Source: Afifellaceae bacterium (lineage in GTDB: Bacteria > Pseudomonadota > Alphaproteobacteria > Rhizobiales > Afifellaceae). From it: DNA of 29,309 nucleotides. Positions 8,133-29,309 of the stretch are shown piece by piece (the first letter of the stretch is position 1; the number at the start of each line of letters is the position of its first letter). The position numbers and the translations under genes are program-made. Location: assembly GCA_035465195.1 (NCBI GenBank), contig DATHRP010000379.1, forward strand, positions 1-29,309, given 5' to 3'. The notes under the pieces are model-generated. The model was not told where the DNA came from and did no database searches. It was given only the letters and a program-made list of their open reading frames with translations.

Positions 8133-9953
8133 CTAGGCATGGCCGGAAAAAAGCGCCTCGATTTCATCGGCGTATTTCGCCGATACGGCATTCCGCTTGA
8201 TTTTGAGCGTCACGGAGAGAAGGCCGGCTTCCGTTGTCCAGGGATTGAAGCCCGCGTGAACGCGCCTGATCTGCGCGTAATCGGGGAAAGCCCGGCATAA
8301 TCCGGCGATGTGCCGGCGCAGTGCCCTCTCGCACGCCGGGCTGTTCGGATCGTCCGGGCTGAGCCCGTTCCGCGCGGCAAAGTCGACCCATGCTCCGCGG
8401 TTGAGCACGACGAGGGCCACGACGATCGGCCGTCGGTCGCCAATCACCATTACCTGTTCGAACATCGGATCGCTGACGATCCGGGTTTCCAGATCCGAAG
8501 GCGCCAACTTTTCACCCGTTGACAGCACGATGATATCGCGCAGGCGTCCGTGGATGTGGAGCCGGCCATCGCGCAATTCGCCCACGTCTCCGGTGTGCAG
8601 CCAGCCCTCGCGGTCGATCGCCTCCGCCGTCTCCTCCGGCCGTTTCCAGTACCCGGACATGACGGCCGCCGAGCGGAGCAGGATCTCGCCGTTCTCGGCG
8701 ATGCGCACGTGCACACCGGGCAGCGGCCTGCCGACGGCACCGGGCCTGTACTCGCTGAGCGGGTCGCCACTGACCGGACCGGCCGCCTCGGCCAGGCCGT
8801 AGCCCTCGATCAGCGGTAGCCCTATTGTCCGCAATGCGGCGGCGAGTTCGGCGGACAGGGGAGCTCCTCCGCACACGGCGATGCGCAACCTGCCGCCAAA
8901 TCGCTTGAGCAGCTTTCCGGTGATCAGATGTCCGATCAGCCAGCGCGCGATCCGTGTCGCAATGTCGTCCCGGCTGGCATCCGGCCCGATGAATTTCACC
9001 TTTCCGAGCAGCCACCGGCCAAGTGGATTCGAGGACGCAGAGCCCGCGACACCCGCCCACACGCGCTCGAAAATGCGGGGCACGCCCATGATGACAGTCG
9101 GTCTGATCTCGCGCATGTCCTGTGGCAGGTCAGGGATGGAGCGCGCGAACGCGACCTGCCCGCCGCAAGCCATGGCCAGATAATATTCGGTCGTTCGTTC
9201 GAAAATATGCGCCATCGGAAGAAACGATAGGAAGACGTCCTCCAGATAGCCGGGATTGCGCTCGGCTGTCGCGCTCACTGCAGCGACGAGATTGCGGTGA
9301 GACAGCATCACGCCCTTGGGCCGACCGGTCGTGCCCGAGGTATAGGTAATCGTTGCCAGCATATCGCCGCGGACGTCGGCGGCACCCACCGGAGTACCTG
9401 CATCCAGCCAGCTGTCGAGGGACACCCCTCCTTCCAGGTCCTGGATACCCGGCTCAACGCAAACCACATGTTCAAGCATCGGAAACTGATCCCGCCGGGC
9501 AAACAGTTCGCGCCAATGATCCGTCGACCCGACGAGCAGCAGACGCACCTCGGCATCGGCAAGCTGATCGGCCCAGTTGTAGGCACCATCGGTGACATGA
9601 AGCGGCACCGTGACCAGGCCGAGGCTCAAAGCAGCCACGTCAAAGCATACCCACTCCACGCTGTTTCTTAGGAGCACTACCACGCGATCCCCGGCGGTCA
9701 GGCCCGAACCGGCAAATCCGGCACGCCACCTGGCGACTTTTACCGCCATATCTCGCCAGCTGTAATTCTGCCAGCATCTTTCTGCCGGTTCGAACTGCCG
9801 ATAGGCGATCCGTTCCGGCGTCCGCCGAACCCGTTCTTCGAAAAGTGCGGGAATCGTATCGACGACGTCGATCCCGATCATGTCGCCGGCCGCCGACAAC
9901 CTGGCTGCCATGCCCGCTGATTTTGCGCTGAGCGCTTCCTGTTCCCCCGACAT
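8133..9953 (-). CDS. Long-chain fatty acid--CoA ligase (AMP-dependent synthetase, FadD/FAA1-like)
   Basis: TITYTSGTTGRPKG, FLPMAHIFER, EGYGLAE, GWLHTGDVG, IIVLSTGEK and C-terminal TLKIKR (catalytic Lys). Confidence 0.9.
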   Translation of the reverse strand: MSGEQEALSAKSAGMAARLSAAGDMIGIDVVDTIPALFEERVRRTPERIAYRQFEPAERCWQNYSWRDMAVKVARWRAGFAGSGLTAGDRVVVLLRNSVEWVCFDVAALSLGLVTVPLHVTDGAYNWADQLADAEVRLLLVGSTDHWRELFARRDQFPMLEHVVCVEPGIQDLEGGVSLDSWLDAGTPVGAADVRGDMLATITYTSGTTGRPKGVMLSHRNLVAAVSATAERNPGYLEDVFLSFLPMAHIFERTTEYYLAMACGGQVAFARSIPDLPQDMREIRPTVIMGVPRIFERVWAGVAGSASSNPLGRWLLGKVKFIGPDASRDDIATRIARWLIGHLITGKLLKRFGGRLRIAVCGGAPLSAELAAALRTIGLPLIEGYGLAEAAGPVSGDPLSEYRPGAVGRPLPGVHVRIAENGEILLRSAAVMSGYWKRPEETAEAIDREGWLHTGDVGELRDGRLHIHGRLRDIIVLSTGEKLAPSDLETRIVSDPMFEQVMVIGDRRPIVVALVVLNRGAWVDFAARNGLSPDDPNSPACERALRRHIAGLCRAFPDYAQIRRVHAGFNPWTTEAGLLSVTLKIKRNAVSAKYADEIEALFSGHA

Positions 9954-15260: not shown

Positions 15261-16933
15261 AGATCCTCCCGAAAATGGACCAGGAGATGATTGACCGGGT
15301 TGGGCGCGGCCTGCCCCAGGCCACAGATCGATGCGTCGCGCATGACCGCTTCAAGATCGCGCAGCGCCTCTTCGTCGAGCGCTCCGCCCTTCTGCAGCAG
15401 CGCCACCATCTTCTCCGTACCGCCGCGGCACGGCGTGCACTGGCCGCAGCTTTCGTGCTTGAAGAACTTCAGGAGATTGAGCGTGGCGTCCTTCACGCTG
15501 TCCTTGTCGGAAAGCACGACGACGGCATGCGATCCGACGAACGAATTCAGTTCCGCGAGCTTGCCGCCGAAATCGAGCGGCACGTCGTCCATCGACGCCG
15601 GCAGGATACCGCCGGACGCGCCGCCCGGCAGATAGGCCTTGAAGGTGTGGCCCTCGGCCATGCCGCCGCAATGATCGTCGATCAGTTCGCGGATCGTCAC
15701 ACCGGCCGGCGCGATCTTCACGCCGGGGTCCTTCACGCGGCCGGAAACCGACCATGAGCGCATGCCCGGATGGCCGTCCTTGCCCTGGGCCGCGAACCAG
15801 TCCGGCCCCTTTTCCATGATGTCGCGGATCCAGTAGAGCGTCTCGACATTGTGGTTCAGCGTCGGCCGGCCGAACACGCCGACCTCGGCAATATAGGGCG
15901 GCCGGTGCCGCGGCAGGCCGCGCTTGCCCTCGATCGATTCGATCATCGCGCTTTCCTCGCCGCAGATATAAGCGCCGGCGCCGCGTCGCAGTTCGATGAA
16001 ACCCTTTTCGCATAGTCCGGCCGCCTCGAGCGCGGCGATCTCGTCGGCGAGAATCCGCAGCACCTCCGGATATTCGTCACGCATGTAGAAATAGATGCGG
16101 TCCGCTTCCACGGCGTGGGCTGCGATCATCGCGCCCTCGAGCGCCCGGTGCGGATCGCGCTCCAGATAATAACGGTCCTTGAACGTGCCGGGCTCGCCCT
16201 CATCGCCGTTCACCGTCATCAGTCGCGGGCCGGGATAGCCGCGAACGAACTTCCATTTCGTCCCGGCCGGGAACCCAGCGCCGCCGAGGCCGCGCAGGCC
16301 GGCATTGCCGAATGCCTCGATCAGCGCATCGGCGGTGATTTCGCCGGCCCGGACCCTGGCAAGCAGGGCGTATCCGCCGTCGGCCTGATAGGCGGCAAGC
16401 GTCTGATGGTCGGGCATCTGCGGCTCGAATGGCGCGCCCTTGTCGAGCCGCGCCTTGACCGCCTCGGCCGCGGCCGGCGCGATCTCCGCCTTGCCGACCC
16501 GGAGCGCCGGCGCCTTGTCGCAGGCGCCCATACACGGCGCGCGCACGACACGCACATCGCTGCCCGCCACGGAATTTTCCAATTCCGCGATGAGCGCTTC
16601 CGCCCCGGCCATCATGCAAGACAGGGAATCGCAGACACGGATCGTCACCGGCGGCGGCGGCGCCTCGCCTTCCTTGACGATATCGAAATGATCGTAGAAC
16701 GACGCGACCTCGTATACCTCGGCCTGTGCGAGCCGCATCTCCTCCGCCAGCGCGGCAAGATGGGCAGCACTCAGGCAGCCGTAGCGATCCTGTATCAGAT
16801 GCAGATGCTCGATCAGCAGATCGGACCCGCGCGGCCGTTCGCCGAGAAGGTCTCGCACCTCCTTCAGGGCACTCTCATCGATCTGCCGCCCCTTCGGTTT
16901 GGCAGAGCGTTTCCTCGAAACCTGGATATTCAT
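15257..16933 (-). CDS. Formate dehydrogenase beta subunit (fused NuoE-like [2Fe-2S] plus NuoF-like FMN/NAD/[4Fe-4S]), Fdh1B/FdwB type
   Basis: VCDSLSC...CMGAC, GLRGLGGAGFP, NGDEGEPGTFKDR, GAGAYICGEE and ESCGQCTPCR...CGLG. Translationally coupled to the alpha gene. Confidence 0.92.
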   Translation of the reverse strand: MNIQVSRKRSAKPKGRQIDESALKEVRDLLGERPRGSDLLIEHLHLIQDRYGCLSAAHLAALAEEMRLAQAEVYEVASFYDHFDIVKEGEAPPPPVTIRVCDSLSCMMAGAEALIAELENSVAGSDVRVVRAPCMGACDKAPALRVGKAEIAPAAAEAVKARLDKGAPFEPQMPDHQTLAAYQADGGYALLARVRAGEITADALIEAFGNAGLRGLGGAGFPAGTKWKFVRGYPGPRLMTVNGDEGEPGTFKDRYYLERDPHRALEGAMIAAHAVEADRIYFYMRDEYPEVLRILADEIAALEAAGLCEKGFIELRRGAGAYICGEESAMIESIEGKRGLPRHRPPYIAEVGVFGRPTLNHNVETLYWIRDIMEKGPDWFAAQGKDGHPGMRSWSVSGRVKDPGVKIAPAGVTIRELIDDHCGGMAEGHTFKAYLPGGASGGILPASMDDVPLDFGGKLAELNSFVGSHAVVVLSDKDSVKDATLNLLKFFKHESCGQCTPCRGGTEKMVALLQKGGALDEEALRDLEAVMRDASICGLGQAAPNPVNHLLVHFREDL

Positions 16934-17211: not shown

Positions 17212-18006
17212 TCAGGGAGCCGGATCAGTCGTGGCGACTTCCAGAGCGGTCGATGACGCCTCAAGCCGCTCGATGATGGCGGGAGGCGGTCTGGCATCGG
17301 TGACCAGCAGGTCGAATTCGTCGAAGTCGCAGACCTTCACCAGCGCGCTGCGCGTGAACTTGGAATGGTCGGTGACCACCGTGCGCTGCTGGCCGCAACG
17401 CAGCACCATCCGGGCGAACTCCGCCTCGGCGAGATGGTAGTCCATCAGGCCGGTCGCGGCGTCGACAGCCGCGATGGAAATGATGGCGTGCCGGACGGCG
17501 AAATTCGCGACGAAGTCGATCGCGGTCCGGCCGAAGGCCGCGCCGTTGTCGCCGTGCAGTTCGCCGCCGGCCATGTAGACCCGGTTGCCGTTGACGGTCG
17601 CCAGCGTGCGGGCGACGTCGGACGAGTTGGTCACGATCGTCAGGCCGGATTTCCGCAGCAGTTCGCGCGCGAGAAGGCTGGTTGTCGTTCCCGTGTCCAT
17701 CATGACGCTGTCGCCGTCTTCGATCATCTTCGCCGTGTGGCGGGCGATGAGGCGTTTCTCGCGGGCGTTTTCCCGCATGCGGCGCTCAAACGGCGCTTCC
17801 GGGCCCCAGGCGGCAGTGCTGACCGCGCCGTGATGGCGGATCAGTTCGCCACTTTCCACCAGCGGACGGATATCGCGGCGGATGGTCTCCAGCGAAACGC
17901 CCAGCGCGCGGGCAAGATCGCCGATCCGGGCCGATCCGTTGGCCCGCACGGTTTCGATGATTCCCGACTGTCGGCTTGTGAGTTTTATGCGCTGTTGGAC
18001 GTTCAT
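17212..18006 (-). CDS. DeoR/GlpR-family transcriptional regulator
   Basis: HTH RQSGIIETV...DLARALGVSLETIRRDI and sensor domain MDTGTTT, TNS, AGGEL, DHSKF. Start moved to ATG 18006. Confidence 0.92.
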   Translation of the reverse strand: MNVQQRIKLTSRQSGIIETVRANGSARIGDLARALGVSLETIRRDIRPLVESGELIRHHGAVSTAAWGPEAPFERRMRENAREKRLIARHTAKMIEDGDSVMMDTGTTTSLLARELLRKSGLTIVTNSSDVARTLATVNGNRVYMAGGELHGDNGAAFGRTAIDFVANFAVRHAIISIAAVDAATGLMDYHLAEAEFARMVLRCGQQRTVVTDHSKFTRSALVKVCDFDEFDLLVTDARPPPAIIERLEASSTALEVATTDPAP

Positions 18007-18031: not shown

Positions 18032-18087
18032 CCACAAAAGCAATTGATACGCCATATTGCCACAAATCCGGGCGCAATCACCACAAA
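18032..18087. promoter_or_regulatory. Three CCACAAA direct repeats (18032, 18060, 18081), putative DeoR operator
   Basis: Exact heptamer repeated three times in the AT-rich divergent promoter, with start-to-start spacings of 28 and 21 nt. Confidence 0.5.
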
Positions 18088-18104
18088 AAGCATCGCGATC
18101 CCGG

Positions 18105-18134
18105 TTGACTCCGTCTCGGCCCTGCTGTCACATT
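18105..18134 (+). promoter_or_regulatory. Putative sigma70 promoter of the ABC/catabolic operon
   Basis: TTGACT-N18-CACATT, immediately downstream of the repeats and 60 nt upstream of the SBP ATG. Confidence 0.35.
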
Positions 18135-18193: not shown

Positions 18194-19162
18194 ATGTCTA
18201 GAAACTGTTCCAGGTCTTCGTCGGCGATTGCCGCGGCGGCCTTCATCGCCGCCATGGCCCTGCCGGCGGCGGCTTACGCCCAGGCGGAGTCCTCGGACCC
18301 GATAAAGCTCACCCTGCATGACTGGACCGGGCAGCTGGTCACCACGCAGATCATGGGCGAAGTGCTGAAGAAGGCCGGCTACAATGTCGAATATGTGCAG
18401 GCCGACTACATCGCCCAGTTCGCGGGCCTGAAGTCGGGCGATCTGCATGTCGCCATGGAAATCTGGGAAACGACCGGTCGCGACGCCATGGACGAGGCGA
18501 CCGCCACGGGCAATGTCGAAAATCTCGGCGAGACCGGCATGCAGGCGATCGAGGAATGGTGGTATCCCGCCTATATGACGGAAAAGTGCCCAGGCCTGCC
18601 GAACTGGGAAGTGCTCAAGGATGAAGCCTGCGCTGAAGCCTTCGCCACGGCCGAAACCGCGCCCAAGGGCCGTTATCTCGGCGGACCGGTGACATGGGGC
18701 GGTTACGACGACGAGCGAGCAGCCGCCCTGGAACTGCCTTTCGAGGTTGTCCATGCCGGCACCGATGCCGCGCTCTTCGCCGAACTGGAATCGGCCTACC
18801 AGCGCAAGGCGCCGATCATGCTGTGGGTCTATGCGCCGCACTGGGCGCCGGTCAAATATGAAGGTGCCTGGGTGGAATTCCCGGAATATTCCAAGGAATG
18901 CTACGACGATCCCTCGGCCGGCGTGAACCCGGACGCCACCTACGATTGCGGCAAGCCGCGCGGGCCGATCTGGAAGGTCGCCTGGTCCGGCGTGAAGGAC
19001 AAGTGGCCGGGCGCCTACAAGGCCATCAAGGCGTTCAACATTTCTAATGACGAGATGGGCGCGATGGTCGCCGACGTCGACCTCAACGGCAAGAAGCTGG
19101 ACGACACGGTCGCGGACTGGATGGCGGCCAACGAAGCGCGCTGGTCGGAGTGGATCAAATAG
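18194..19162 (+). CDS. ABC transporter substrate-binding protein, glycine betaine/proline (OpuAC) family, TmoX-related clade
   Basis: Sec signal peptide (AAAYA-Q), LHDWTGQ, MEIWE, EEWWYP, CPGLPNW, GRYLGGP, DPSAGVNPDATYDCG and WSEWI C-terminus. ATG 18194 has SD GGAGA; the track start at 17882 is spurious. Confidence 0.9.
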   Translation: MSRNCSRSSSAIAAAAFIAAMALPAAAYAQAESSDPIKLTLHDWTGQLVTTQIMGEVLKKAGYNVEYVQADYIAQFAGLKSGDLHVAMEIWETTGRDAMDEATATGNVENLGETGMQAIEEWWYPAYMTEKCPGLPNWEVLKDEACAEAFATAETAPKGRYLGGPVTWGGYDDERAAALELPFEVVHAGTDAALFAELESAYQRKAPIMLWVYAPHWAPVKYEGAWVEFPEYSKECYDDPSAGVNPDATYDCGKPRGPIWKVAWSGVKDKWPGAYKAIKAFNISNDEMGAMVADVDLNGKKLDDTVADWMAANEARWSEWIK

Positions 19163-19179
19163 TCCGCTCACCGTAACAA

Positions 19180-19217
19180 ACCGCCGCCGGAACCCTTGGC
19201 GTTTCTCCGGCGGCGGT
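19180..19217 (+). other. Intercistronic stem-loop after the SBP gene
   Basis: ACCGCCGCCGGA / TCCGGCGGCGGT 12-bp stem with no U tract, typical of an mRNA-stabilising hairpin in ABC operons. Confidence 0.6.
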
Positions 19218-19265
19218 CCCATTGCCGGCCTCTGTCTCATCGGAATCTGAGAGTCCGACCCGATC

Positions 19266-20306
19266 ATGACGACCGATCCATCCCGCTCAGTCAAACTGCA
19301 GTGCCGTTCGGTATGGCGATTGTTCGGCCACGGCGCTGCGCGGGCGCTGAGCGCGAGCGGTGGCCAGATGAGCGACGAGGATCTGATGGCCTCCGGCCTC
19401 GTCGGCGCAGTGCGCGATGTCGAACTGGACGTTCTCGAAAACGAGATCTTCGTCATCATGGGCCTGTCCGGCTCGGGCAAGTCGACGCTCGTGCGGTGCA
19501 TGTCGCGCCTGATCGAACCGACGTCTGGCGAAATCCTCTTCAACGGCGAGAACCTGCTGGAAGCCAGCGCCGCTCGGATGATCGAGATCCGCCGTCACCA
19601 GATGGGAATGGTGTTCCAGAACTTCGCCCTGCTGCCGCATCTGTCCGTGCTCGGCAACGTCGCCTTTCCGCTCGAGGTGCAGGGCGTGGACCGGCCGGCC
19701 CGCGAGGCGCGCGCCCGCGAGGTCATCGAACTGGTCGGCCTCCAGGGGCGCGAGGGGTTCTTCCCGGGTGAACTGTCCGGCGGCCAGCAGCAGCGCGTCG
19801 GCATCGCCCGTTCGCTCGCGGTGGAACCTGAGATCTGGTTCCTCGACGAACCGTTCTCCGCGCTCGATCCGCTGATCCGCCGCGAAATGCAGGACGAATT
19901 CATCCGCCTCCAGTCCGTCCTCAGAAAGACCATCGTTTTCATCACCCACGATTTCGACGAGGCGATCCGGCTTGCCGACCGCATTGCCATCATGAAGGAC
20001 GGCCGGGTCGTGCAGATCGGCACGCCGGAAGAGTTGGTGATCCGGCCGGCGACGGATTACGTCGCCGAATTCACCCGCAACGTCATCAAGGCAAAGGTTG
20101 TCCGGGCAGGCTCCGTCATGCAGGCGTTGCCGGCAACTCCTCCGGCCGGCGGTTTCGGAAAGGACGTCTCGACCGATCAGTGCATCGCCGAGATAGCGCC
20201 GCTGTTCGAGGCCGGCCCGGACACGGTGCGTGTTGTCGACGCGGCCGGCCGCCCGGCCGGCTGCCTGACGCGCGACGATGTCGTACGCGTCATGATGCAG
20301 GCCTGA
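19266..20306 (+). CDS. ABC transporter ATP-binding protein (ProV/OpuAA family)
   Basis: Walker A GLSGSGKST, Q-loop VFQ, signature LSGGQQQ, Walker B FLDEPFSALD, FITHD, and a degenerate CBS-like tail. Confidence 0.93.
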   Translation: MTTDPSRSVKLQCRSVWRLFGHGAARALSASGGQMSDEDLMASGLVGAVRDVELDVLENEIFVIMGLSGSGKSTLVRCMSRLIEPTSGEILFNGENLLEASAARMIEIRRHQMGMVFQNFALLPHLSVLGNVAFPLEVQGVDRPAREARAREVIELVGLQGREGFFPGELSGGQQQRVGIARSLAVEPEIWFLDEPFSALDPLIRREMQDEFIRLQSVLRKTIVFITHDFDEAIRLADRIAIMKDGRVVQIGTPEELVIRPATDYVAEFTRNVIKAKVVRAGSVMQALPATPPAGGFGKDVSTDQCIAEIAPLFEAGPDTVRVVDAAGRPAGCLTRDDVVRVMMQA

Positions 20307-20309
20307 GCG

Positions 20310-22343
20310 ATGAGCCTGACCACGCCATCCGGTATCGAGCGTTCAGACGACCGGCGGGCGGCCTGGCCGATGTCGCGCTGGCAGGTGGCATGGAGCGTAG
20401 CGCTCTGCCTTTTCCTTGCTCTGTGGATCTACGGAAAGCCCGTAGCCGGCTGGGCATTCAAGGTGCCGAGGGAATTGCGCATCCCGCTGCACCGCTGGAT
20501 CGGGGATTTCATGAAATGGCTGGTGGAGGATGCCAGCTTCGGCCTGTTCAGTTTTACCGACCTGACCCGCTTCGTAGCCTCCGTGATCGAGTTCCCCTAC
20601 CGCATCGCCCTGAGCCTGCTGTCCACCGGCTTCCTGCAGGGACAGGGGTCCGACGCGGTGCAGATCCTGCCGCCCGTTTCCTGGATTGCCGTCATCGCGA
20701 TCGCGGCCGGGATCGGCTACTACGCCGGCGGGCGGGCGCTTGCGCTGCTGGTTGCCCTCTGCTTCGCATTCCTCGCTTTGTTCGGCCAATGGGACAATGC
20801 GATGATCACGCTGGCGTCAATCCTGATCGCCGTACCGCTGGCGGTGGCCGGCGGCCTGCTGCTCGGAATTGCCGGATACCGCTGGACGCGCTTCGAGATG
20901 GCGCTGAAACCGCTGCTTGACCTGATGCAGACGATTCCGGTCTTCGCCTATCTGGTACCGATCCTCTTCCTGTTCGGTTTCGGTCCGACCTCCGCGATCG
21001 TGGCGACCATCATCTATGCGCTGCCGCCGATGACGCGCATCACCATTCTGGCCCTGCATGGCGTGCCCGACGAGATCGACGATCTCGGCCGCATGGTCGG
21101 CTGTACGCGCCGCCAGATGACCTGGCGCGTACTCGTGCCCTCGGCCATGAAGGGCCTGATGATCGGCGTCAACCAGGTCATCATGCTGTCTCTGAACATG
21201 GTGATCATCGCCTCGATGATTGGCGCCGGCGGTCTCGGCTTCGAGGTGCTGGCCGCCCTCAGGCGCCTGGACATCGGCAAGGGCCTGGAAGCCGGGCTTG
21301 CGATTGTCGCGCTGGCCATCGCGCTCGACCGGCTGACCCAAGCGCTGGCCCGCCGTACACGTGCGCACCAGAGCGACGTCATGGAAGGCGCCGGGCTCGT
21401 CCGGCGCAACCCCTATACTATTTCGGCCGTCGCGCTCATCCTTGTGACCGGCGTGGTCGGCCTGGCGATCCCCGCCATCCAGGCCTATCCCGAAAGCTGG
21501 CAGTTCTCCACCGGAACGTTCTGGTCGGAAGTGGTGCGCTGGATCAACGTTAATTTCTTCGACGACCTGGAGGCGATCAAGAACGTGCTCCTGCTCAATG
21601 TGCTGATCCCGTTCAAGCGCTTCCTGATCGGCTTGCCCTGGTTCGGAGTGGTCTGCCTCCTGGGCCTGGCCGGGTTGTCGCTTGGCGGCCTGCGCCTGGC
21701 GGCGGTCGTCACGGTCCTTGCCGGGCTGATCGCGCTTACCGGCCAGTGGGAAAAGGCGATGATCACCGTGTATCTGTGCGGCATCGCCGTCGTGTTCGCC
21801 TGCCTGATCGGTGTGCCGATCGCCATCCTGACAGCCGAACGCCGCAATCTCTGGCCCTGGGTGGAAACGATCATCGATACGCTCCAGACCCTCCCGTCAT
21901 TCGTCTATCTGATGCCGGCGGTCATGCTGTTCCGCGTCGGCGATTTCACGGCCATGATCGCCGTCGTGGCCTATGCTGTGGCGCCCGCCGTGCGCTACAC
22001 CGCGCACGGCCTGCGCCAGGTGGATCCGCAGCTCATCGAGGCCGGGACGGCCGCCGGCTGCACACCCTGGCAATTGCTCACCAAGATCAAGCTCAAGCTC
22101 GCATTGCCGGAGATCATGCTGGGTCTCAACCAAACCATCATGCTGGCGCTGTCGATGCTCGTCATCACCGCCCTGGTCGGTACGCGCGATCTCGGCCAGG
22201 AGGTCTATATCGCGCTCACCAAGGCGGATACCGGACGCGGCCTGGTGGCCGGCATGTCGGTTGCCTTTATCGCGATCATTGCTGACCGCCTGATATCCGC
22301 ATCGGCCGATCGCGTCCGCGTCCGGCTCGGGCTTGCGAAATAG
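20310..22343 (+). CDS. ABC transporter permease with two fused ProW-type domains
   Basis: Two repeats with DLMQTIPVFAYLVP / DTLQTLPSFVYLMP, EAA-loop equivalents (DDLGRMVGCT / IEAGTAAGCT) and NQVIMLSL / NQTIMLAL. Confidence 0.92.
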   Translation: MSLTTPSGIERSDDRRAAWPMSRWQVAWSVALCLFLALWIYGKPVAGWAFKVPRELRIPLHRWIGDFMKWLVEDASFGLFSFTDLTRFVASVIEFPYRIALSLLSTGFLQGQGSDAVQILPPVSWIAVIAIAAGIGYYAGGRALALLVALCFAFLALFGQWDNAMITLASILIAVPLAVAGGLLLGIAGYRWTRFEMALKPLLDLMQTIPVFAYLVPILFLFGFGPTSAIVATIIYALPPMTRITILALHGVPDEIDDLGRMVGCTRRQMTWRVLVPSAMKGLMIGVNQVIMLSLNMVIIASMIGAGGLGFEVLAALRRLDIGKGLEAGLAIVALAIALDRLTQALARRTRAHQSDVMEGAGLVRRNPYTISAVALILVTGVVGLAIPAIQAYPESWQFSTGTFWSEVVRWINVNFFDDLEAIKNVLLLNVLIPFKRFLIGLPWFGVVCLLGLAGLSLGGLRLAAVVTVLAGLIALTGQWEKAMITVYLCGIAVVFACLIGVPIAILTAERRNLWPWVETIIDTLQTLPSFVYLMPAVMLFRVGDFTAMIAVVAYAVAPAVRYTAHGLRQVDPQLIEAGTAAGCTPWQLLTKIKLKLALPEIMLGLNQTIMLALSMLVITALVGTRDLGQEVYIALTKADTGRGLVAGMSVAFIAIIADRLISASADRVRVRLGLAK

Positions 22344-22353
22344 GAAGGCGACC

Positions 22354-23238
22354 ATGGCGGACAAGGACGAGCTCATTCAGTCGCTGCCCTGCTGGACCGG
22401 CCCGGTCGGCTGGGAACCGCTGAAGGGCGGACTGTCGAACGAGAGTTTCCTCGTTGACCAGGGCGGGCAGAAATTCGTCGTCCGCCTCGGCCGCGACTAT
22501 CCCTTTCACCATGTCTTCCGCGACCGGGAAGTGATGGTGAGCCGGGCGGCCTGCGATGCAGGCTTTGCGCCCGAACTCGTCTATTCCGCCCCCGGAATCA
22601 TGGTTTCCCGCTTCATAGACGGCGAGACTTTCGACGAGGCCGCGGTCCGGGAGAATATCGGCCGCATTGCCGAACTGGTCGCGCGGTTCCACAACGAGAT
22701 GCCGAAGCACGTCAGCGGCCCGGGGTTCATGTTCTGGGTTTTCCACGTCATCCGCGACTATGCCCGCACGCTCGAAGAAGGCGGCAGCCGCATGACCGAC
22801 CGGCTGGCCGGCTATCTGGAGCTTGCAGATGAACTGGAAGCCGTCCAGGTCCCAATGCCGATCGTCTTCGGCCATCACGACCTGTTGCCGGCGAATTTCA
22901 TCGACGACGGAAGCCGGCTGTGGCTGATCGATTTCGAATATGCCGGCTTCTCCACGCCGATGTTCGACCTGGCCGGCGCCACCTCCAATGCCGGCTTCAA
23001 CGACAGCCAGTCCGAGGAATTCCTGACCGCCTATTTCGGTGGACCGCCGGACGAAGCCGTTCGCCGGAGCCATGCCGCCATGCAGTGCACCTCGCTCTTG
23101 CGCGAGGCGATGTGGAGCATGGTGTCGGAAATCCATCTCGATGCCCCCGGCGTCGATTACGTCGCATACACGCAGGAAAACCTGTCCCGGCTCGAACTGG
23201 CGCTGGAGTCCTACAGATCAAGGTACGGAAGGAACTGA
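22354..23238 (+). CDS. Choline/ethanolamine kinase-family (APH-fold) phosphotransferase 1
   Basis: GGLSN nucleotide loop, Brenner motif HHDLLPANF and LIDFEYAG. ATG 22354 has SD AGGAAGG. Confidence 0.88.
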   Translation: MADKDELIQSLPCWTGPVGWEPLKGGLSNESFLVDQGGQKFVVRLGRDYPFHHVFRDREVMVSRAACDAGFAPELVYSAPGIMVSRFIDGETFDEAAVRENIGRIAELVARFHNEMPKHVSGPGFMFWVFHVIRDYARTLEEGGSRMTDRLAGYLELADELEAVQVPMPIVFGHHDLLPANFIDDGSRLWLIDFEYAGFSTPMFDLAGATSNAGFNDSQSEEFLTAYFGGPPDEAVRRSHAAMQCTSLLREAMWSMVSEIHLDAPGVDYVAYTQENLSRLELALESYRSRYGRN

Positions 23239-23241
23239 TCC

Positions 23242-25683
23242 ATGCAATTGCCGGATCGGGCGCAGATCGTCGTCATCGGCGGCGGCATCATCGGATGCTC
23301 AACCGCGTACCACCTGGCCCGCGATCATCATGCCGATGTCGTCCTGCTGGAGCAGGGCAAGCTGACCGGCGGTTCGACATGGCACGCCGCCGGCCTGGTC
23401 GGCCAGCTTCGCTCGTCGGCTTCGATCACGCAGGTGCTGAAATATTCCGTCGATTTGTACCGCCGACTGGCGGATGAAACCGGCCTGGAAACCGGCTGGA
23501 AGATGTCGGGCTGCCTCAGGCTGGCCTGCAACGAAGATCGCTGGGCCGAGTACCGCCGTCTCGCCACCACGGCCGGAAGCTTCGGCATGGACATGCATCT
23601 GCTCTCGCCCTCGGACGTGAAGGGCATGTGGCCCCTGATGAATGTCGACGATCTGGTCGGCGCGACCTTCCTGCCGACCGACGGACAGGCAAGCCCGTCC
23701 GACATCACCCAGTCGCTCGCCCAAGGCGCGCGGATGCATGGCGCGAAACTGTTCGAGGGCGTCCGCGTCACCGGGTTCGATGTCGTGGAAGGAACCATTT
23801 CCGCGGTCAGGACCGGTGCCGGCAGGATCGCCTGCGAAAAGGTGGTCAACTGTGCCGGCATGTGGGCACGCCAGGTCGGCGCCATGGCCGGCATCAATGT
23901 TCCGCTCCAGCCGGTCAGGCACCAGTACATCGTCACCGAGCAGGTCGAAGGCCTGTCCACCGAAATTGCCACGGTACGCGATCCCGACAGGCTTACCTAC
24001 TTCAAGGAGGAGGTCGGCGGCCTGGTCATGGGCGGCTACGAGCAGAACCCGATATCGTGGACGACCGACGACGTGCCGGACGACTTCCAGTTCCAGCTCT
24101 TCGACGACGACTGGGATCATTTCGAGCAGCATCTGGTACAGGCGATCGAGCGCATACCCGCGCTCGAAAAGACCGGCGTCAAGCAGATGATCAACGGGCC
24201 GGAAAGCTTCACCCCCGACGGCAATTTCATCCTCGGGCCGGCGCCCGAATGCGCCAACATGTATGTCGGCGCCGGCTTCAATGCCTTCGGCATCGCTTCC
24301 GGCGGCGGCGCCGGCTGGGTGCTGGCCCAATGGGTGATCGACGACGAGCCGCCGATGGATCTGTGGGTCGTCGATATCCGGCGCTTTTCCGATCTGCACA
24401 AGGATCGGGACTGGGTCAACGAACGCACCCTCGAGGCCTATGGCAAGCATTATGCGGTTGGCTTCCCACACGAGGAATATCAGTCCGGTCGGCCGCGTAT
24501 CGTCTCGCCGCTCTACGAGCGCCTGAAGACGCATCGCGCGGTCTTCGGCTCCAAGCTGGGGTGGGAGCGGCCCAACTGGTTCGCGCCGGCGGACATGGAA
24601 CCACGCGACGAGCCCTCGATGGGCCGGCCGAACTGGTTCGATCCGGTCGGCGAGGAGCACAGGCTCGTGCGCGAGGTGGCCGGCATCTTCGACCAGTCCT
24701 CCTTCGCGAAATTCGAAATGTCGGGAACCGATTCCGCCCGGGCACTGGAATGGATCTGCGCCAACAGGGTCGCCAGGCCCGTCGGCCGGCTGACCTATAC
24801 CCAGCTTCTGAATTCGCGCGCCGGCATAGAATGCGACCTGACTGTAGCGCGCCTTGCCGACGATCTTTTCTATATCGTCACCGGCACCGGTTTCCGCGTT
24901 CACGACAGTGCGTGGATCCGAGATCACATCCCCGCGGGCCTGGATGCGACGCTGAGCGATGTCACGGAGGCGTTCGGAACGCTTTCGCTCATGGGACCGA
25001 AAGCCCGGGACATTCTGCAGGCAGTCACCGAAGACGATTGCTCCGGCCCGGCCTTTCCATTCGGCCATGTCCGGCAGATCGTGATTGCCGGCCATCCGGT
25101 TCGCGCGCTTCGCGTGACCTATGTCGGCGAACTGGGATGGGAACTGCATGTCCCGATAGAAGCGACGGGCGATGTGTTCGACACGCTGATGGAAGCCGGC
25201 GGCATCCACGGCGTCCGCCCGGTCGGCTACCGGGCGCTGGAATCGCTCAGGCTCGAGAAGGGCTACCGCACCTGGAGTTCCGATATCACGCCCAACGATA
25301 CGCCCTTCGACGCCGGGCTCGGCTGGGCCGTCAAGCTGAAGTCGGACACGCCGTTCATAGGTCGTGAAATGGCCGAGAAGGCGGCGAACTCCGTTCCGCG
25401 CAAGCAGCTCGTGGGATTTACCGTCGACGATCCGCGGGTCGTCCTGCTCGGCCGCGAGACGATCCTGCGCAACGGCGAATTCGCCGGATACCTGACAAGC
25501 GGTGGTTTCGGATACACGGTCGGAAAACCGATCGGTTACGGCTATGTGCGAAATGCCGACGGCGTGACGCCGGATTATCTCGAGAGCGGAACATACGAAC
25601 TTGTGGTCGCGCAGGACAGGATCCCGGCCGACCTGCATGTGACGCCGCTGTACGACCCGGCAGGCGAGCGGGTCCGGGCGTAG
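23242..25683 (+). CDS. GcvT-family FAD/folate-dependent N-demethylating dehydrogenase 1 (sarcosine-dehydrogenase-like signature)
   Basis: GGGIIG, STWHAAG (covalent-FAD His), RHQY, INGPESFTPDG, GFNAFGIASGGG, and folate domain GIECDLT, ELGWEL, SLRLEKGY. Confidence 0.92.
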   Translation: MQLPDRAQIVVIGGGIIGCSTAYHLARDHHADVVLLEQGKLTGGSTWHAAGLVGQLRSSASITQVLKYSVDLYRRLADETGLETGWKMSGCLRLACNEDRWAEYRRLATTAGSFGMDMHLLSPSDVKGMWPLMNVDDLVGATFLPTDGQASPSDITQSLAQGARMHGAKLFEGVRVTGFDVVEGTISAVRTGAGRIACEKVVNCAGMWARQVGAMAGINVPLQPVRHQYIVTEQVEGLSTEIATVRDPDRLTYFKEEVGGLVMGGYEQNPISWTTDDVPDDFQFQLFDDDWDHFEQHLVQAIERIPALEKTGVKQMINGPESFTPDGNFILGPAPECANMYVGAGFNAFGIASGGGAGWVLAQWVIDDEPPMDLWVVDIRRFSDLHKDRDWVNERTLEAYGKHYAVGFPHEEYQSGRPRIVSPLYERLKTHRAVFGSKLGWERPNWFAPADMEPRDEPSMGRPNWFDPVGEEHRLVREVAGIFDQSSFAKFEMSGTDSARALEWICANRVARPVGRLTYTQLLNSRAGIECDLTVARLADDLFYIVTGTGFRVHDSAWIRDHIPAGLDATLSDVTEAFGTLSLMGPKARDILQAVTEDDCSGPAFPFGHVRQIVIAGHPVRALRVTYVGELGWELHVPIEATGDVFDTLMEAGGIHGVRPVGYRALESLRLEKGYRTWSSDITPNDTPFDAGLGWAVKLKSDTPFIGREMAEKAANSVPRKQLVGFTVDDPRVVLLGRETILRNGEFAGYLTSGGFGYTVGKPIGYGYVRNADGVTPDYLESGTYELVVAQDRIPADLHVTPLYDPAGERVRA

Positions 25684-25692
25684 GAGGAAACC

Positions 25693-28113
25693 ATGGCGGA
25701 CGCGCGGGATCGACATTTCCGGATCGTCATAGTCGGCGGCGGCGCCATCGGCACCTCCGTCGCCTGCCATCTGGCGCGGGCCGGCGAGCGCGATGTCCTG
25801 GTCCTGGAAAAAGCGCAACTGACCCATGGCTGCACCTGGCATGCGGCAGGCCTTGTCGGCCAGCTGCGCGGCAAGCGGAACCTGACGAGGCTGATGCAGA
25901 ATTCGGTCGCCGTATTCGACAGGCTGGAAGCCGAAACCGGGCTCGCGATCGATTGGCGGAAGGTCGGCTCGCTGCGGCTGGCGTCGAGCCCCGAACGCTG
26001 GAGCGAAATCCGCCGCTCCATGTCACAGGCCAAGAGCTTCGGGGTGGAATGCGGGGAACTGTCGGCTGCGGAGGCAAAGGACCTGTTTCCCTATATCGAG
26101 GCCGGCGGGGTCGAAGGAGCCGCATTCATACCGGGCGACGGCTATGTAGATCCCTATGCCCTGACACAGGCCTATGCGAAGGCGGCCCGCAACGGCGGCG
26201 TCACCATCGAGGAAGGCGTGACGATCACCGATATTGTCAGGGAAGGCCGGCGGGCGACCGGGGTGGTCACCGACCACGGCACGATCGGGTGCGAAATTCT
26301 GGTCAACTGCGCCGGCCTTTGGGCGAAGCGCCTCGGCGAAATGGCCGATGTCCCGTTGGCCGCCGGCGTGGTCGAGCATCAGTATTTCCTGACGGAGAAG
26401 ACGCTCGATTTCGACCGCAACCTTCCGACCCTGCGCGATCCCGATCACAATTTCTACCTCAAGCCCGATACCGGCGCATTCGCGATCGGCGGCTGGGAGG
26501 AAGGCACGAAGGGATGCTGGCGGGGCATGCCGCCGCTGGAATTCGGCCGCGAACTGTTTCCGCCGGAAATGGACCGGCTGGAACGGTTCGCCCTTCCGGC
26601 GGCCGAGCGCCTCCCCATCCTCAACGAGATCGGAATCCAGACCATCATCAACGGCCCGATCCCGGTCTCCGCCGATGGCGAGCCGGTCATGGGTCCGGTT
26701 CCGGAGCTGGACAATTTCTACGTCGCTTGCGGCTTCACCGCCGGCATTGCGGCATCGGGCGGCGCTGGAGAGGCGATGGCAAACTGGATTCTGCACGGCG
26801 ATCCCGGCATGGATCTCTGGTCCTTCGATGTCCGCCGCTTCAGCGCCATTCACGCCCAGCCGCGCTACCTGGAAGAGCGCGCCATCGAAGCCTACGCCTC
26901 CTATTACAAGATCCACTGGCCGGGCGAGGAAAGTTCGGCCGGCCGTGGATTGCGCCGCTCTCCGCTCCATCACCACATCAAGGCGGCCGGCGCGGCTTTC
27001 GGTTCGAAATTCGGCTGGGAGCGGGCGAACTGGTTTGCCCCGCAGGGCGTCAAGCCTGTCGACGTTCCCGACTTCGAGGGCAGGCCGAACTGGTTCGAAC
27101 CTGTCGGCGCCGAATGCCGGGCCATCCGCGAGCGGGTGGCGCTGATCGACCAGTCATCCTTCTCCAAGTTCGAGATAACCGGACCGGGTGCACGCGCGGC
27201 GCTCGACCGGATCGCCGCCAACCGCATTCCGGAAGAGCCCGGCCAGGTCGTCTATACCCAGCTGTGCAACGAGAGGGGTGGTATCGAGGCGGACGTGACG
27301 ATCGTCCATGCCGGCCCGGAACGGTTCCTCGTCATGACCGGTGCCGGCTTCGCGGTCCGGGATCGGCACTGGATCGAAAGCCACCTTGGCACAGGCGAGG
27401 TCGCGCTGCGAGACGTCACCAACGCGCTTGCCGTGATCAATATCTGCGGTCCGCAAAGCCGCGCCGTGCTCCAGAGCGTGACGGACGATGACCTGGGCAA
27501 TCAGTCCCTTCCGTTCCTCGGCGCGCGCGACATCGATATCGGCCATGCGCGGGCGCTGGCCGTGCGGATCGGTTATGTCGGCGAACTGGGCTATGAACTA
27601 TACATCCCCCAGGAATTCGCCCCGCACGTCTATGAAACGCTTCGGGATGCGGGCGCGGAGCACGGGATCGCCAATGCGGGTTACCGGGCCATCGAAAGTT
27701 GCCGGCTGGAAAAGGGCTATCTCTACTGGTCCGGCGATATCGGACCGGACGTCAATCCGTACGAGGCCGGGCTGGGTTTCTGCGTTGCGCTCGACAAGGG
27801 CGATTTCATCGGACGCCATGCGCTTGAGGCGATCAGCCGGCGGGAGCCGGATCGCCGTGTCGCCACCTTCTCGCTCGACGGCTTCGTACCGCTCCATGGC
27901 GGCGAGCCGGTCATCCAGGGCGGCCGGATCGCAGGCTCGACCTCGAGCGCGGGATATGGTCATGCGGTCGGACAGACGATAGCCTTCGCCATGCTGCCGA
28001 CCGACCTGGGCGACGACCTGCCCTTCGAGATCGAGGCATTCGGAAAGTCATACCCGGCGGTCAGGCAGGCGCGCTGCCTTTACGACCCGAAGATGGAACG
28101 GCTGAAAAGTTGA
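25693..28113 (+). CDS. GcvT-family FAD/folate-dependent N-demethylating dehydrogenase 2 (dimethylglycine-dehydrogenase-like signature)
   Basis: GGGAIG, CTWHAAG, EHQY, INGPIPVSADG, GFTAGIAASGG, GIEADVT, ELGYEL, SCRLEKGY. Confidence 0.92.
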   Translation: MADARDRHFRIVIVGGGAIGTSVACHLARAGERDVLVLEKAQLTHGCTWHAAGLVGQLRGKRNLTRLMQNSVAVFDRLEAETGLAIDWRKVGSLRLASSPERWSEIRRSMSQAKSFGVECGELSAAEAKDLFPYIEAGGVEGAAFIPGDGYVDPYALTQAYAKAARNGGVTIEEGVTITDIVREGRRATGVVTDHGTIGCEILVNCAGLWAKRLGEMADVPLAAGVVEHQYFLTEKTLDFDRNLPTLRDPDHNFYLKPDTGAFAIGGWEEGTKGCWRGMPPLEFGRELFPPEMDRLERFALPAAERLPILNEIGIQTIINGPIPVSADGEPVMGPVPELDNFYVACGFTAGIAASGGAGEAMANWILHGDPGMDLWSFDVRRFSAIHAQPRYLEERAIEAYASYYKIHWPGEESSAGRGLRRSPLHHHIKAAGAAFGSKFGWERANWFAPQGVKPVDVPDFEGRPNWFEPVGAECRAIRERVALIDQSSFSKFEITGPGARAALDRIAANRIPEEPGQVVYTQLCNERGGIEADVTIVHAGPERFLVMTGAGFAVRDRHWIESHLGTGEVALRDVTNALAVINICGPQSRAVLQSVTDDDLGNQSLPFLGARDIDIGHARALAVRIGYVGELGYELYIPQEFAPHVYETLRDAGAEHGIANAGYRAIESCRLEKGYLYWSGDIGPDVNPYEAGLGFCVALDKGDFIGRHALEAISRREPDRRVATFSLDGFVPLHGGEPVIQGGRIAGSTSSAGYGHAVGQTIAFAMLPTDLGDDLPFEIEAFGKSYPAVRQARCLYDPKMERLKS

Positions 28114-28128
28114 ACGGAGGGACCGACC

Positions 28129-29061
28129 TTGGAGAATGATGCGACGGAGCAGGCCCGCGCTGCGCTGAAATTCGTTCCGGCGTTCGCCGGCCTGGACCCG
28201 AACCGGGTCGAGATCGAGCGGCTGGGCGGTCTGACCAATCTGGTGTTTCGCGTCTCGTACGCAGGCGACAACTGGTGCCTTCGTCTGCCCGGCGCCGGAA
28301 CGGAGGAATATATCGACCGCGCCGTCGAGGCGGTCGCCGCAAGGGAAGCGGCGCGCGCCGGCGTGAGCCCGCCGTTGATCTTTTCAGACCCGGAAAGCGG
28401 CATCATGGTGACCCGGTTCGTGGAAGGGGCGGAAACCATGACAGGCGACCTGTTCCGCAGCCGACCCTGTGCACCGGCTCGCGCCGGCGAAGCATTCCGG
28501 AAGCTGCACAGCTCGGACGCGAAATTCGACTTCGTCTTCGAACTGTTTTCCATGGTCGACGGATATCTCGGCATACTGGCCGGCAAGACCATCGATCTGC
28601 CGGACGGCTATCACGATGTTCTGAAGGAGGCCGAGAGCGTGCGCCGTGCGCTTCAGGCCGCTCCGGCAGAAATAACCGCATGCCACTGCGATCCCCTGGC
28701 GGAGAATTTTCTCGATACCGGGGAGCGCATGTGGATCGTCGACTGGGAATATTCCGGTATGAATGATCCGATGTGGGATCTCGGCGATCTTTCCGTCGAG
28801 GCCGGCTTCGACGATGCCCAGGACGAGGAGATGATCCGCGCCTATTTCGGCGACGAGCCGCGACCCGGTGAGCGCGGACGGATCGTGATCTACAAGGCGA
28901 TGTGCGACCTTCTGTGGACGCTCTGGGGCCTCATCCAGCACGCCAACGGCAATCCCGCCGAGGATTTCTGGGCCTATTCGACCGGGCGTTTCGCCAGGTG
29001 CAAGACGCTGATGGCGACGCCGGAATTCAACCGGCATGTCGCCGCCGTCGCGGCCGGCTGA
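28129..29061 (+). CDS. Choline/ethanolamine kinase-family phosphotransferase 2 (LicA-like)
   Basis: LGGLTN, CLRLPGAGT, Brenner motif CHCDPLAENF and IVDWEYSGMNDPMWDL. TTG start with SD GGAGGG. Confidence 0.88.
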   Translation: MENDATEQARAALKFVPAFAGLDPNRVEIERLGGLTNLVFRVSYAGDNWCLRLPGAGTEEYIDRAVEAVAAREAARAGVSPPLIFSDPESGIMVTRFVEGAETMTGDLFRSRPCAPARAGEAFRKLHSSDAKFDFVFELFSMVDGYLGILAGKTIDLPDGYHDVLKEAESVRRALQAAPAEITACHCDPLAENFLDTGERMWIVDWEYSGMNDPMWDLGDLSVEAGFDDAQDEEMIRAYFGDEPRPGERGRIVIYKAMCDLLWTLWGLIQHANGNPAEDFWAYSTGRFARCKTLMATPEFNRHVAAVAAG

Positions 29062-29112
29062 CATGGCCGGCCGTTCCCGAGCCCGGTCGGGATTCTCTTG
29101 CAAGCCGTCGCC

Positions 29113-29309
29113 GTGACCGGCTTCCGGCTGCCCGTCGATCTTCAGGCGATCCTGTTCGACAAGGACGGAACGCTGATCGACTATGAGCGCACCTGGGCTC
29201 CGATCAATTTCGAGGCGGCGCGGCTGGCCGCCGCCGGCGATGAGACACTGGCGCAGGAGCTTCTGAGAGCCGGCGGCGTCGATCCGCGGACAGGCCGGAC
29301 GCGGGCGGA
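29113..29309 (+). CDS. HAD-superfamily hydrolase (phosphatase), 5' part, runs off the right edge
   Basis: Not in the ORF track. Manual translation MTGFRLPVDLQAILFDKDGTLIDYERTWAP contains HAD motif I (DxDGTL). Start is GTG 29113 or TTG 29098. Confidence 0.85.
   Translation, partial: MTGFRLPVDLQAILFDKDGTLIDYERTWAPINFEAARLAAAGDETLAQELLRAGGVDPRTGRTRA

Follow-up and report, generated by a model that had tools for sequence, protein, structure and literature searches.

Gene content and organisation of the locus

The window, that is, the whole stretch of DNA that was analysed, comprises 29,309 nucleotides from an Afifellaceae bacterium. Reading of open reading frames and domains places a closely packed set of genes on the + strand at 18194-29309, which runs in the order binding protein, ATPase, fused permease, kinase 1 (K1), predicted demethylases 1 and 2 (D1 and D2), kinase 2 (K2) and HAD phosphatase (Table 1). 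From the ATPase to K2 the genes overlap or are spaced by 3 to 15 nt, with 103 nt between binding protein and ATPase and 36 nt between K2 and HAD; K1 has an alternative ATG start at 22354. The operon genes listed by a first-pass annotation of this DNA are all present on the + strand, and their positions agree exactly or closely with those it had assigned. The DeoR regulator under which it placed them is present, but it is divergent from the operon and lies outside 18194-29309. Likewise, the formate dehydrogenase that it saw as a neighbour is there, but on the opposite strand, and in none of 80 relatives (0/80) does a formate dehydrogenase adjoin the cluster; one relative (L075) has a beta-like formate dehydrogenase gene, 39% identical, 6.5 kb downstream. 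A search with Rfam of the window and of Mesorhizobium leaders found no family at gathering score and returned chance hairpin matches only (E >1).

Table 1. Features of the operon and its surroundings in the window
Feature	Coordinates	Strand	Evidence
Formate dehydrogenase genes	12447-15260 and 15257-16933	opposite to operon	
DeoR/GlpR-family regulator	17212-18006 (ORF open to 18093)	-	HTH_DeoR + DeoRC
Candidate promoter/operator	18032-18109	+	CCACAAA boxes + TTGAC hexamer
Periplasmic binding protein, TmoX-like, OpuAC fold	18194-19162	+	PF04069; signal peptide
ABC ATPase, ProV/ChoV type	19266-20306	+	TIGR01186, 334 bits, above cut-off
Fused double permease, ChoW/ProW type	20310-22343	+	two BPD_transp_1 stretches; TIGR03416, 407 bits, above cut-off
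Kinase K1, choline/ethanolamine-kinase fold, altered amine pocket	22333-23238	+	PF01633/PF01636 (Choline_kinase/APH)
D1, predicted FAD + folate (GcvT) N-demethylase, DMGDH/SARDH family	23242-25683	+	DAO + FAO_M + GCV_T + GCV_T_C
D2, predicted FAD + folate N-demethylase, distinct subfamily	25693-28113	+	DAO + FAO_M + GCV_T + GCV_T_C
Kinase K2, choline-kinase fold, complete choline-type pocket	28129-29061	+	3DXQ orthologue
Putative HAD-IA phosphatase N-terminus	29098-29309	+	FDKDGT motif; weak PF00702 match

As the window is an entire contig, the HAD gene is truncated at 29309. Another contig (C808, in reverse complement) overlaps the final 104 nt and probably completes the gene as that of a HAD-IA hydrolase; the HAD core is found on C808 only, a contig possibly from a co-binned strain, the overlap being 89% identical. 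Since the HAD gene is followed on C808 by a convergent PhnU2-type permease, it is probably the last gene of the operon. A weak hairpin (29075-29092) lies between K2 and HAD.

Regulator and importer

The DeoR regulator has both the HTH_DeoR domain and the DeoRC sensor domain of its family, whose usual effectors are phosphorylated metabolites. Its start is likelier the ATG at 18006 than the limit of the open frame at 18093, and it scores 167 bits with NF008154, below the cut-off. Orthologues in many relatives are also divergent from the cluster. Three CCACAAA boxes (18032-18039, 18060-18067 and 18081-18089) stand upstream of a -35-like TTGAC hexamer at 18105-18109. A (C/T)CACA box 6-22 nt 5' of TTGAC recurs in 13 of 16 DeoR-adjacent intergenic regions, compared with a mean of 0.15 and a maximum of 3 in 1000 shuffles, a statistic that is no independent test because the 16 loci share ancestry.

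What would the importer carry? The best solved relative of the binding protein is TmoX (4XZ6, E 1.3e-70). Its pocket reads W, W, G, E, W, W, Y where TmoX has W55, W102, F106, E131, W177, F220 and W222 (4/7 identical), and is invariant in 29 operon-linked orthologues, the third position being G or A. All 29 thus depart from the TmoX pocket, with G or A for F106, W for F220 and Y for W222. The ChoX family (TIGR03414) gives 33.5 bits, far below its cut-off of 379. Judged by these residues, an aromatic cage with a Glu and a small residue at the F106 site would fit a cationic ligand bigger than TMAO.

Kinases K1 and K2 and their amine pockets

The genome has no choline-kinase-family genes other than K1 and K2, and the Brenner and choline-kinase motifs are present in both. 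K2 is the orthologue of an uncharacterised M. loti protein (PDB 3DXQ, E 2.3e-136). It is identical to LicA at T29, D176, N181, D194, Y197, E213, W251, W254 and Y268, with V178 replaced by L, and its LicA-type catalytic and choline-contact positions are invariant in 71/71 orthologues. The methylated-ammonium cage (LicA Y197, E213, W251, W254 and Y268) is complete in all of them. The first-pass annotation had taken the kinases to act on amino-alcohols, and the complete choline-type pocket of K2 agrees with that claim. K1 keeps the catalytic residues, and its cage is partial: LicA E213 is N and W251 is E in 12/12 orthologues, and T29 is S, with T in one of the 12. As the two amine pockets differ, the kinase substrates would be differently N-substituted alcohols; two such kinases imply that methylated phosphate esters should exist, and these would require a demethylase. 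An apparent fusion of a K2 homologue (a 458-aa open frame) was rejected as just an upstream open frame.

Two predicted demethylases

In both D1 and D2 the four Pfam domains extend over the full length, and D1 matches human DMGDH (5L46) at E 4.6e-162. The His for covalent FAD and the His/Tyr dyad (DMGO His48, His225 and Tyr259) are kept in D1, D2 and their orthologues, where they appear as TWHAAGL, HQY and the Tyr. D1 and D2 are 42% identical, a figure that brings D2 no nearer to D1 than to the genome's other paralogues. Orthologues of D1 occur in 56 relatives (68-82% identical) and those of D2 in 34 (67-74% identical); by sequence, D1 and D2 are two old, separate orthologous groups. A curated equivalog search gave no match for either.

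Is there a trace of a phosphate-ester substrate in these proteins? Comparison of 57 D1 and 35 D2 sequences (the window copies included) with 8 other members of the DMGDH family yielded no phosphate-binding signature that separates D1/D2 from paralogues, the one shared column being uninformative; phosphate binding by D1/D2 is therefore not visible in sequence. The idea of the first-pass annotation that the phosphate mimics a carboxylate has a published precedent in Eubacterium limosum, discussed below.

Conservation across relatives and genomic background

The cluster is present in many soil and sediment bacteria. Of the 60 related loci whose upstream flank reaches 9 kb or more, 57 have K2 next to an orthologue of D1 or D2. 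Gene order varies among them, and as the pairing survives these rearrangements the clustering is well beyond chance. The first-pass annotation had made linkage of the kinases with the GcvT pair its own point of refutation, and the linkage is conserved. D2 is missing from 28 of the 60 loci and K1 from 7, and 3 have D2 and K2 only. The four-gene version accords with the earlier notion of two successive demethylations, but the loci that lack D2 do not. In a Mesorhizobium variant a SAM methyltransferase occupies the position of D2. The best solved relative of this enzyme is METTL27, and no PDB chain named phosphoethanolamine methyltransferase is among the matches listed for it at E <=0.01.

The 3' side is far less constant. 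No conserved step follows K2 in the relatives, where neighbours are variable or on the opposite strand; they include EamA, an aminotransferase, a kynureninase-like gene and an epimerase. The phospho-lyase, aldehyde dehydrogenase or folD/purU that the first-pass annotation had named as possible downstream support has no conserved match. The two nearest relatives, L001 and L002, carry a class-III aminotransferase-family gene that is convergent with K2; this genome holds no orthologue of it, the best match being 34% identical. The dephosphorylation step assigned to HAD is not borne out by conservation either: a similar HAD occurs in one relative only (L053), at a different place. The wider idea of a phosphatase fares better, as the cluster of a distant relative (L095) contains an unrelated IMPase-type phosphatase, and phosphatases of two unrelated superfamilies thus recur (a HAD in this genome and in L053, an IMPase in L095). 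Overall, the earlier interpretation is supported in part, by the conserved linkage, the K2 pocket, the family of the regulator and the recurring phosphatases among other points, whereas the HAD step, the formate dehydrogenase neighbour and the downstream genes are not conserved.

How does the cluster relate to other routes in the genome? As the first-pass annotation had listed, betAB, gbcAB, soxBDAG, tmm/tdm and lic genes, including licBCD, are all absent from the window. BetI-BetA lies on another contig, and ETF-QO, three further DMGDH-like paralogues and two SoxA-like genes are also found elsewhere; given BetI-BetA, ETF-QO and the DMGDH-like paralogues, the operon would be an additional route. 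Tdm above its cut-off, LicD and EutB were not found in the genome, which is 94% complete.

A proposed pathway and its alternatives

We propose, at about even chance, that the operon serves the catabolism of N,N-dimethylethanolamine and N-methylethanolamine, handled as phosphate esters. The cationic amino-alcohol would be taken up by the TmoX-like ABC system. The more methylated alcohol would be phosphorylated by K2, with its full aromatic cage, and the less methylated one by K1, in which Glu replaces one cage Trp. D2 (DMGDH-like) and D1 (SARDH-like) would then oxidise the N-methyl groups of the resulting phosphate esters, passing the one-carbon unit to tetrahydrofolate and electrons to ETF/ETF-QO. 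The phosphoethanolamine product would be dephosphorylated by HAD in this genome, and a phosphorylated intermediate would release the DeoR repressor. The gene content, the conserved linkage, the intact catalytic residues and the choline-type K2 pocket are observed; the substrates, the precedence of kinase over demethylase, the pairing of K1 with D1 and of D2 with K2, and the effector we infer. Several observations sit uneasily with this scheme, among them the missing D1/D2 signature, the lack of a conserved step after K2 and a genome search that found no EutB for the ethanolamine moiety. Absence of D2 from 28/60 loci fits poorly with K2 supplying D2. Moreover, as the K2 pocket is the same as that of choline kinase, K2 may phosphorylate choline, a point against the dimethyl- and monomethyl-ethanolamine reading; we know of no DMGDH-type flavoenzyme that demethylates quaternary amines.

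Could the same logic of import, phosphorylation and demethylation serve a different amino-alcohol or hydroxy-amine that bears N-methyl groups? Candidates include N-methylated aminopropanols, derivatives of serinol, compounds of the homocholine type and N-hydroxy/N-oxide compounds, and we regard such a substrate as unlikely. Among curated families, K1 and K2 score best with GntI (131 and 157 bits, below cut-off), a kinase of an N-hydroxy group whose substrate carries a dimethylamino group, which agrees with this alternative, as do the kinship of the binding protein with a TMAO binder and the want of a linked enzyme for ethanolamine as end product. The residue-level match of K2 to the LicA choline pocket, however, fits a two-carbon amino-alcohol, and the genome is without Tdm above cut-off. 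A quaternary N-oxide would in any case be beyond these enzymes, since no DMGDH-type flavoenzyme is known to us to oxidise one.

A second alternative inverts the order: D1 and D2 would demethylate the free amino-alcohols, and the kinases would phosphorylate the resulting ethanolamine for a PLP phospho-lyase or other use encoded elsewhere. Routes of kinase plus phospho-lyase are known for ethanolamine and aminopropanol, and the aminotransferase-family gene convergent to K2 in L001 and L002 could be read in this light, but that gene has no close copy here. One ethanolamine kinase would suffice for such a route, yet there are two with differing amine pockets, and K2, the universal one, carries the full methylated-ammonium cage. 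To our knowledge, DMGDH-family enzymes are on record with anionic substrates only. Taken together, these points make demethylation first rather improbable.

Least probable, and in our judgement very unlikely, is the reading in which D1 and D2 are plain dehydrogenases of dimethylglycine and sarcosine, and the neighbouring kinases supply phosphocholine or phosphoethanolamine to some other process, such as surface decoration, lipid synthesis or osmolyte trapping. The closeness of D1 to mammalian DMGDH, the retention of all its catalytic residues and the missing D1/D2-specific signature would suit it. Against it stand the kinase-D linkage in 57/60 loci, a genome search that found no LicD, the presence elsewhere in the genome of three more DMGDH-like paralogues, two SoxA-like genes and BetI-BetA, and the DeoR control, which would be unusual in betaine catabolism.

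Extending the preferred scheme of phosphorylated dimethyl- and monomethyl-ethanolamine to the relatives, the cluster might represent a widespread aerobic reversal of phosphobase methylation, in which kinase priming is obligatory and phospho-dimethyl- and phospho-monomethylethanolamine are oxidatively demethylated by dedicated flavoenzymes of the D1/D2 type; we hold this broader claim tentatively, at somewhat less than even chance. Both dehydrogenase activities and both kinases would be new, and in relatives where the SAM methyltransferase replaces D2 the phosphate ester would gain a methyl group instead. If the scheme is true, it also offers a new entry point for bacterial one-carbon and methylated-amine metabolism, and functions for four enzymes so far named by fold alone, including the long-orphaned 3DXQ.

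Comparison with known systems

D1 and D2 share with DMGDH, SARDH and Arthrobacter DMGO (5L46, 4PAA and 1PJ5) the four-domain architecture, the His motif for covalent FAD, the His/Tyr dyad and a folate domain. The known enzymes work without a kinase and act on carboxylate substrates, whereas D1 and D2 are each, as a group, fixed beside choline-kinase-like genes. K2 has in common with LicA of Streptococcus pneumoniae (PDB 4R77) the choline contacts and the Brenner and choline-kinase motifs, but the phosphocholine of LicA goes to cell-wall decoration via LicC/LicD, and LicD was not found in this genome. The TmoX Glu that contacts the ligand oxygen in TmoXWV of Ruegeria pomeroyi is kept in the operon's binding protein, whereas the operon's permease scores as ChoW-type. 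In plants, Plasmodium and nematodes, the phosphoethanolamine N-methyltransferase pathway proceeds via phospho-mono- and phospho-dimethylethanolamine; these are the intermediates proposed here, but the direction is opposite, methylation is SAM-dependent and no homology is known to us.

A literature search for a described aerobic pathway with this enzyme combination found nothing relevant, in line with the claim of the first-pass annotation that none had been described. The sole published precedent found for kinase-primed demethylation is the anaerobic system of Eubacterium limosum, in which MthK with MthB/MthC/MthA forms a phosphocholine:tetrahydrofolate methyltransferase system, dimethylaminoethanol is the excreted product, and the authors' rationale is that phosphate replaces the carboxylate (PMC12155760). 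It resembles the proposed route in that a kinase acts first and the phosphate ester is then N-demethylated onto tetrahydrofolate. None of its enzymes is related to those of the operon: MthK is serine-kinase-like and works with an MttB-family methyltransferase and a corrinoid protein. The substrate is quaternary phosphocholine, and demethylation goes no further than dimethylaminoethanol phosphate, without any oxidation by a flavin. Were the proposed pathway true, it would identify a consumer of dimethylaminoethanol excreted by anaerobes that demethylate choline, and would be a second, independent recruitment of a kinase that lets a carboxylate-binding demethylase take an alcohol.

Layout of the operon and genome context

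The source genome is a fragmented MAG (812 contigs, 4.04 Mb, 94% complete) that GTDB assigns to the order which also holds a Mesorhizobium-like genus, and the window is one complete 29.3-kb contig of it. Eight plus-strand genes lie between 18194 and the contig end, among them two choline-kinase-like enzymes (K1 and K2) and two DMGDH/SARDH-like FAD and folate demethylases (D1 and D2). From the ATPase through K2 the intergenic spacing is 3 to 15 nt, or the genes overlap; 103 nt separate the binding protein from the ATPase and 36 nt separate K2 from the HAD hydrolase, which the contig end cuts. Where does the operon stop? The reverse complement of another contig, C808, shares 93 identical bases in an overlap with the window's last 104 nt and carries the HAD frame through to its stop codon. 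As C808 completes this frame and then shows a convergent permease, the HAD-IA phosphatase is probably the operon's last gene, either in the source organism or in a close strain binned with it. The enzyme could be assigned to no specific family.

Features of the operon, its source genome and related loci
Feature	Location and strand	Remarks
Binding protein, OpuAC-fold	First operon gene, +	Domain/profile match
ATPase, ProV/ChoV-type	After binding protein, +	Domain/profile match
Fused double permease	After ATPase, +	Over ChoW cut-off
K1, D1, D2, K2	In that order after permease, +	
HAD hydrolase	Contig end, +	First 70 codons
DeoR/GlpR regulator	Divergent from operon	
NAD-type formate dehydrogenase	Farther upstream than DeoR regulator, opposite strand	
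961-aa protein	Window 5148-8033, with neighbouring gene at 8133-9953 (minus strand)	Carrier-protein site, adenylation domain, PlsC-type acyltransferase
C808 permease	L081:1-1185, +	Convergent to probable HAD continuation; over PhnU2 cut-off (putative 2-aminoethylphosphonate transporter subunit)
Class-III aminotransferase family	L001:5149-6528 and L002:10991-12370 (minus strand)	Converges on K2, 52-nt gap
Orn/DAP/Arg-family PLP-dependent decarboxylase	L093:8301-9593 (minus strand)	Same strand as K2, 78 nt after it
Class-I SAM methyltransferase	L046:9262-10035 (minus strand); L094:8141-8767	Examples
Mesorhizobium leader	L046:5667-5882; L025:5570-5800	Examples

The standard choline, betaine, sarcosine and TMA genes, reported as absent by the first-pass annotation, were indeed not found within the window. 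Other contigs carry BetI-BetA, two SoxA-like genes, an MttB-like gene and three further DMGDH-like paralogues (14 GcvT-family matches in the whole genome), so the operon adds to standard choline-betaine catabolism rather than replacing it. On contig C370 (L096) two of the DMGDH-like genes stand on opposite strands with genes for a MocR-type regulator and an alanine dehydrogenase between them; beyond the second comes a fragment of an MttB-like gene. Unrelated to the operon, the gene for the 961-aa protein adjoins a separate acyl-CoA-ligase-like gene and an MFS transporter gene.

Conservation in related loci

Is the kinase–demethylase linkage more than an accident of one genome? With K2 as the query, 80 related loci were retrieved, and architectures were counted in the 60 having at least 9 kb upstream. 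The neighbourhood survey proposed at first pass bears the linkage out: a D1 or D2 orthologue adjoins K2 in 57 of the 60, arranged as K1-D1-K2 (28 loci), K1-D1-D2-K2 (19), D1-D2-K2 (7) or D2-K2 (3). The linkage of K2 to a demethylase persists despite rearranged gene order in L054, L055/L095, L070 and L093, and the transporter is also present in most loci outside the Mesorhizobium group. The distribution is patchy: 11 of the 401 genomes sampled from the phylum have a K2 orthologue, and at genus level it is found in 5 of 212. In metagenomes, near-identical DNA was found in one soil run, possibly the sample behind the window's assembly, and partial matches in mangrove, marine-sediment and other sediment runs.

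The flanks are more variable. The formate dehydrogenase, which the first-pass annotation had noted beside the operon, is not conserved in related loci, and reading downstream gave no gene 3′ of K2 that is conserved across relatives. The two closest relatives have an aminotransferase there (see table), of which no close copy is present in the source genome. A distant minimal version (L093) has binding protein, ATPase, permease, DeoR, D2 and K2, all in one direction, followed by a decarboxylase.

In the K1-D1-K2 loci a methyltransferase occupies the D2 position on the opposite strand, divergent from K2 (25 of 80 loci, plus L094). Its best solved relative is METTL27, and no related locus was seen with D2 and the methyltransferase together. 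After its promoter, the Mesorhizobium K1-D1 operon has a conserved leader about 165-180 nt long (L046 and about 15 other loci), in which several hairpins are invariant and a strong stem resembling a terminator precedes a T run. Among such closely related sequences covariation is weak, and the leader, which matches no Rfam family, may be an attenuator or a riboswitch not yet described.

Kinases and demethylases

K2 is the orthologue of PDB 3DXQ, a M. loti structural-genomics protein (E 2.3e-136) whose biochemistry is stated as unknown in the paper on LicA, the choline kinase of S. pneumoniae. Taking the choline contacts listed in that paper as reference positions, K2 aligns with identical residues at T29, D176, N181, D194, Y197, E213, W251, W254 and Y268 and has L in place of V178, and all ten positions are invariant across 71 K2 orthologues. 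K1 keeps its catalytic residues, with the rim glutamate E213 replaced by N and the cage tryptophan W251 by E in 12 of 12 orthologues. The source genome has no other choline-kinase-family member, and LicD was not found in it. These pockets suggest that K1 and K2 are kinases for two amino-alcohols differing at nitrogen, K2 presumably taking the more methylated one.

The DMGDH architecture is complete in both D1 and D2, folate domains included, and both retain the flavinylation histidine and the His/Tyr dyad of dimethylglycine oxidase. They form separate orthologous groups across relatives and, at 42% identity, are no closer to each other than to the genome's other DMGDH-like paralogues (C370a, C155 and C370b). 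Where human DMGDH has NGPITYSPD, D2 has NGPIPVSADG and D1 has NGPESFTPDG, which we take to be SARDH-like. A column-by-column comparison gave no residue common to D1 and D2 that separates both from the other DMGDH-like paralogues, and phosphate-ester binding is therefore not readable from sequence. ETF-QO, present in the source genome, is a possible electron outlet.

Importer and regulator

The nearest solved relative of the binding protein is TmoX, the TMAO binder of Ruegeria pomeroyi (E 1.3e-70). Four of seven pocket residues are kept (three Trp and the oxygen-contacting Glu), whereas F106 is replaced by G/A, F220 by W and W222 by Y, a pattern invariant among 29 operon-linked orthologues. This pocket would fit a cationic, TMAO-related ligand larger than TMAO. 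No Tdm scored over its cut-off in the source genome. DeoR-family sensors typically bind phosphorylated metabolites, and the DeoR-type regulator agrees with a phosphate-ester intermediate in the pathway. Between it and the operon, three CCACAAA boxes upstream of a TTGAC hexamer are a candidate operator; a similar layout recurs in 13 of 16 corresponding regions of relatives.

Proposed pathway and comparison with known systems

What could such an operon do? In the best-supported reading, which we regard as evenly poised, dimethyl- and monomethyl-ethanolamine would be imported and phosphorylated by K2 and K1, D2 and D1 would demethylate the phosphate esters oxidatively in a folate-linked manner, and in the source genome the HAD enzyme would remove the phosphate. 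The evidence that the kinase acts before the demethylase is indirect: the universal kinase K2 has a methylated-ammonium pocket, the two kinases differ in the amine pocket, the regulator family senses phosphate esters, and the substrates of DMGDH-type enzymes are, to our knowledge, all anionic. The dephosphorylation proposed at first pass has partial support: the HAD is present in the source genome but not conserved, a similar one occurring only in L053, upstream of the binding-protein gene. In L095, a distant relative whose locus is also recorded as L055 (Stappia), a phosphatase of the IMPase family is encoded between K2 and the binding protein; most related loci have the cluster without a phosphatase. 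The recurrence of two unrelated phosphatase families in the cluster suggests such a step. Three weak points count against the reading: many loci are without D2, no enzyme for the end product is linked (EutB was not found in the source genome), and the real substrate of K2 may be choline, which flavoenzymes of the D1/D2 type cannot demethylate.

How new would this methylated-ethanolamine pathway be? None of the curated equivalogs in NCBIfam (release of June 2026) matches K1, K2, D1 or D2, and literature searches gave no description of such an aerobic route, in line with the first-pass statement that no described pathway with this enzyme combination was known. The closest parallel is Eubacterium limosum, in which choline is phosphorylated ahead of corrinoid-dependent demethylation, the phosphate, as its authors argue, replacing the carboxylate of the usual substrates (PMC12155760). 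This organism excretes dimethylaminoethanol (PMC12155760), and excretion of that type is a plausible environmental source of substrate. The two systems share the same priming logic but use unrelated enzymes. The enzyme families themselves are known, and there is a precedent for kinase priming; what is apparently undescribed is their combination and the substrates.
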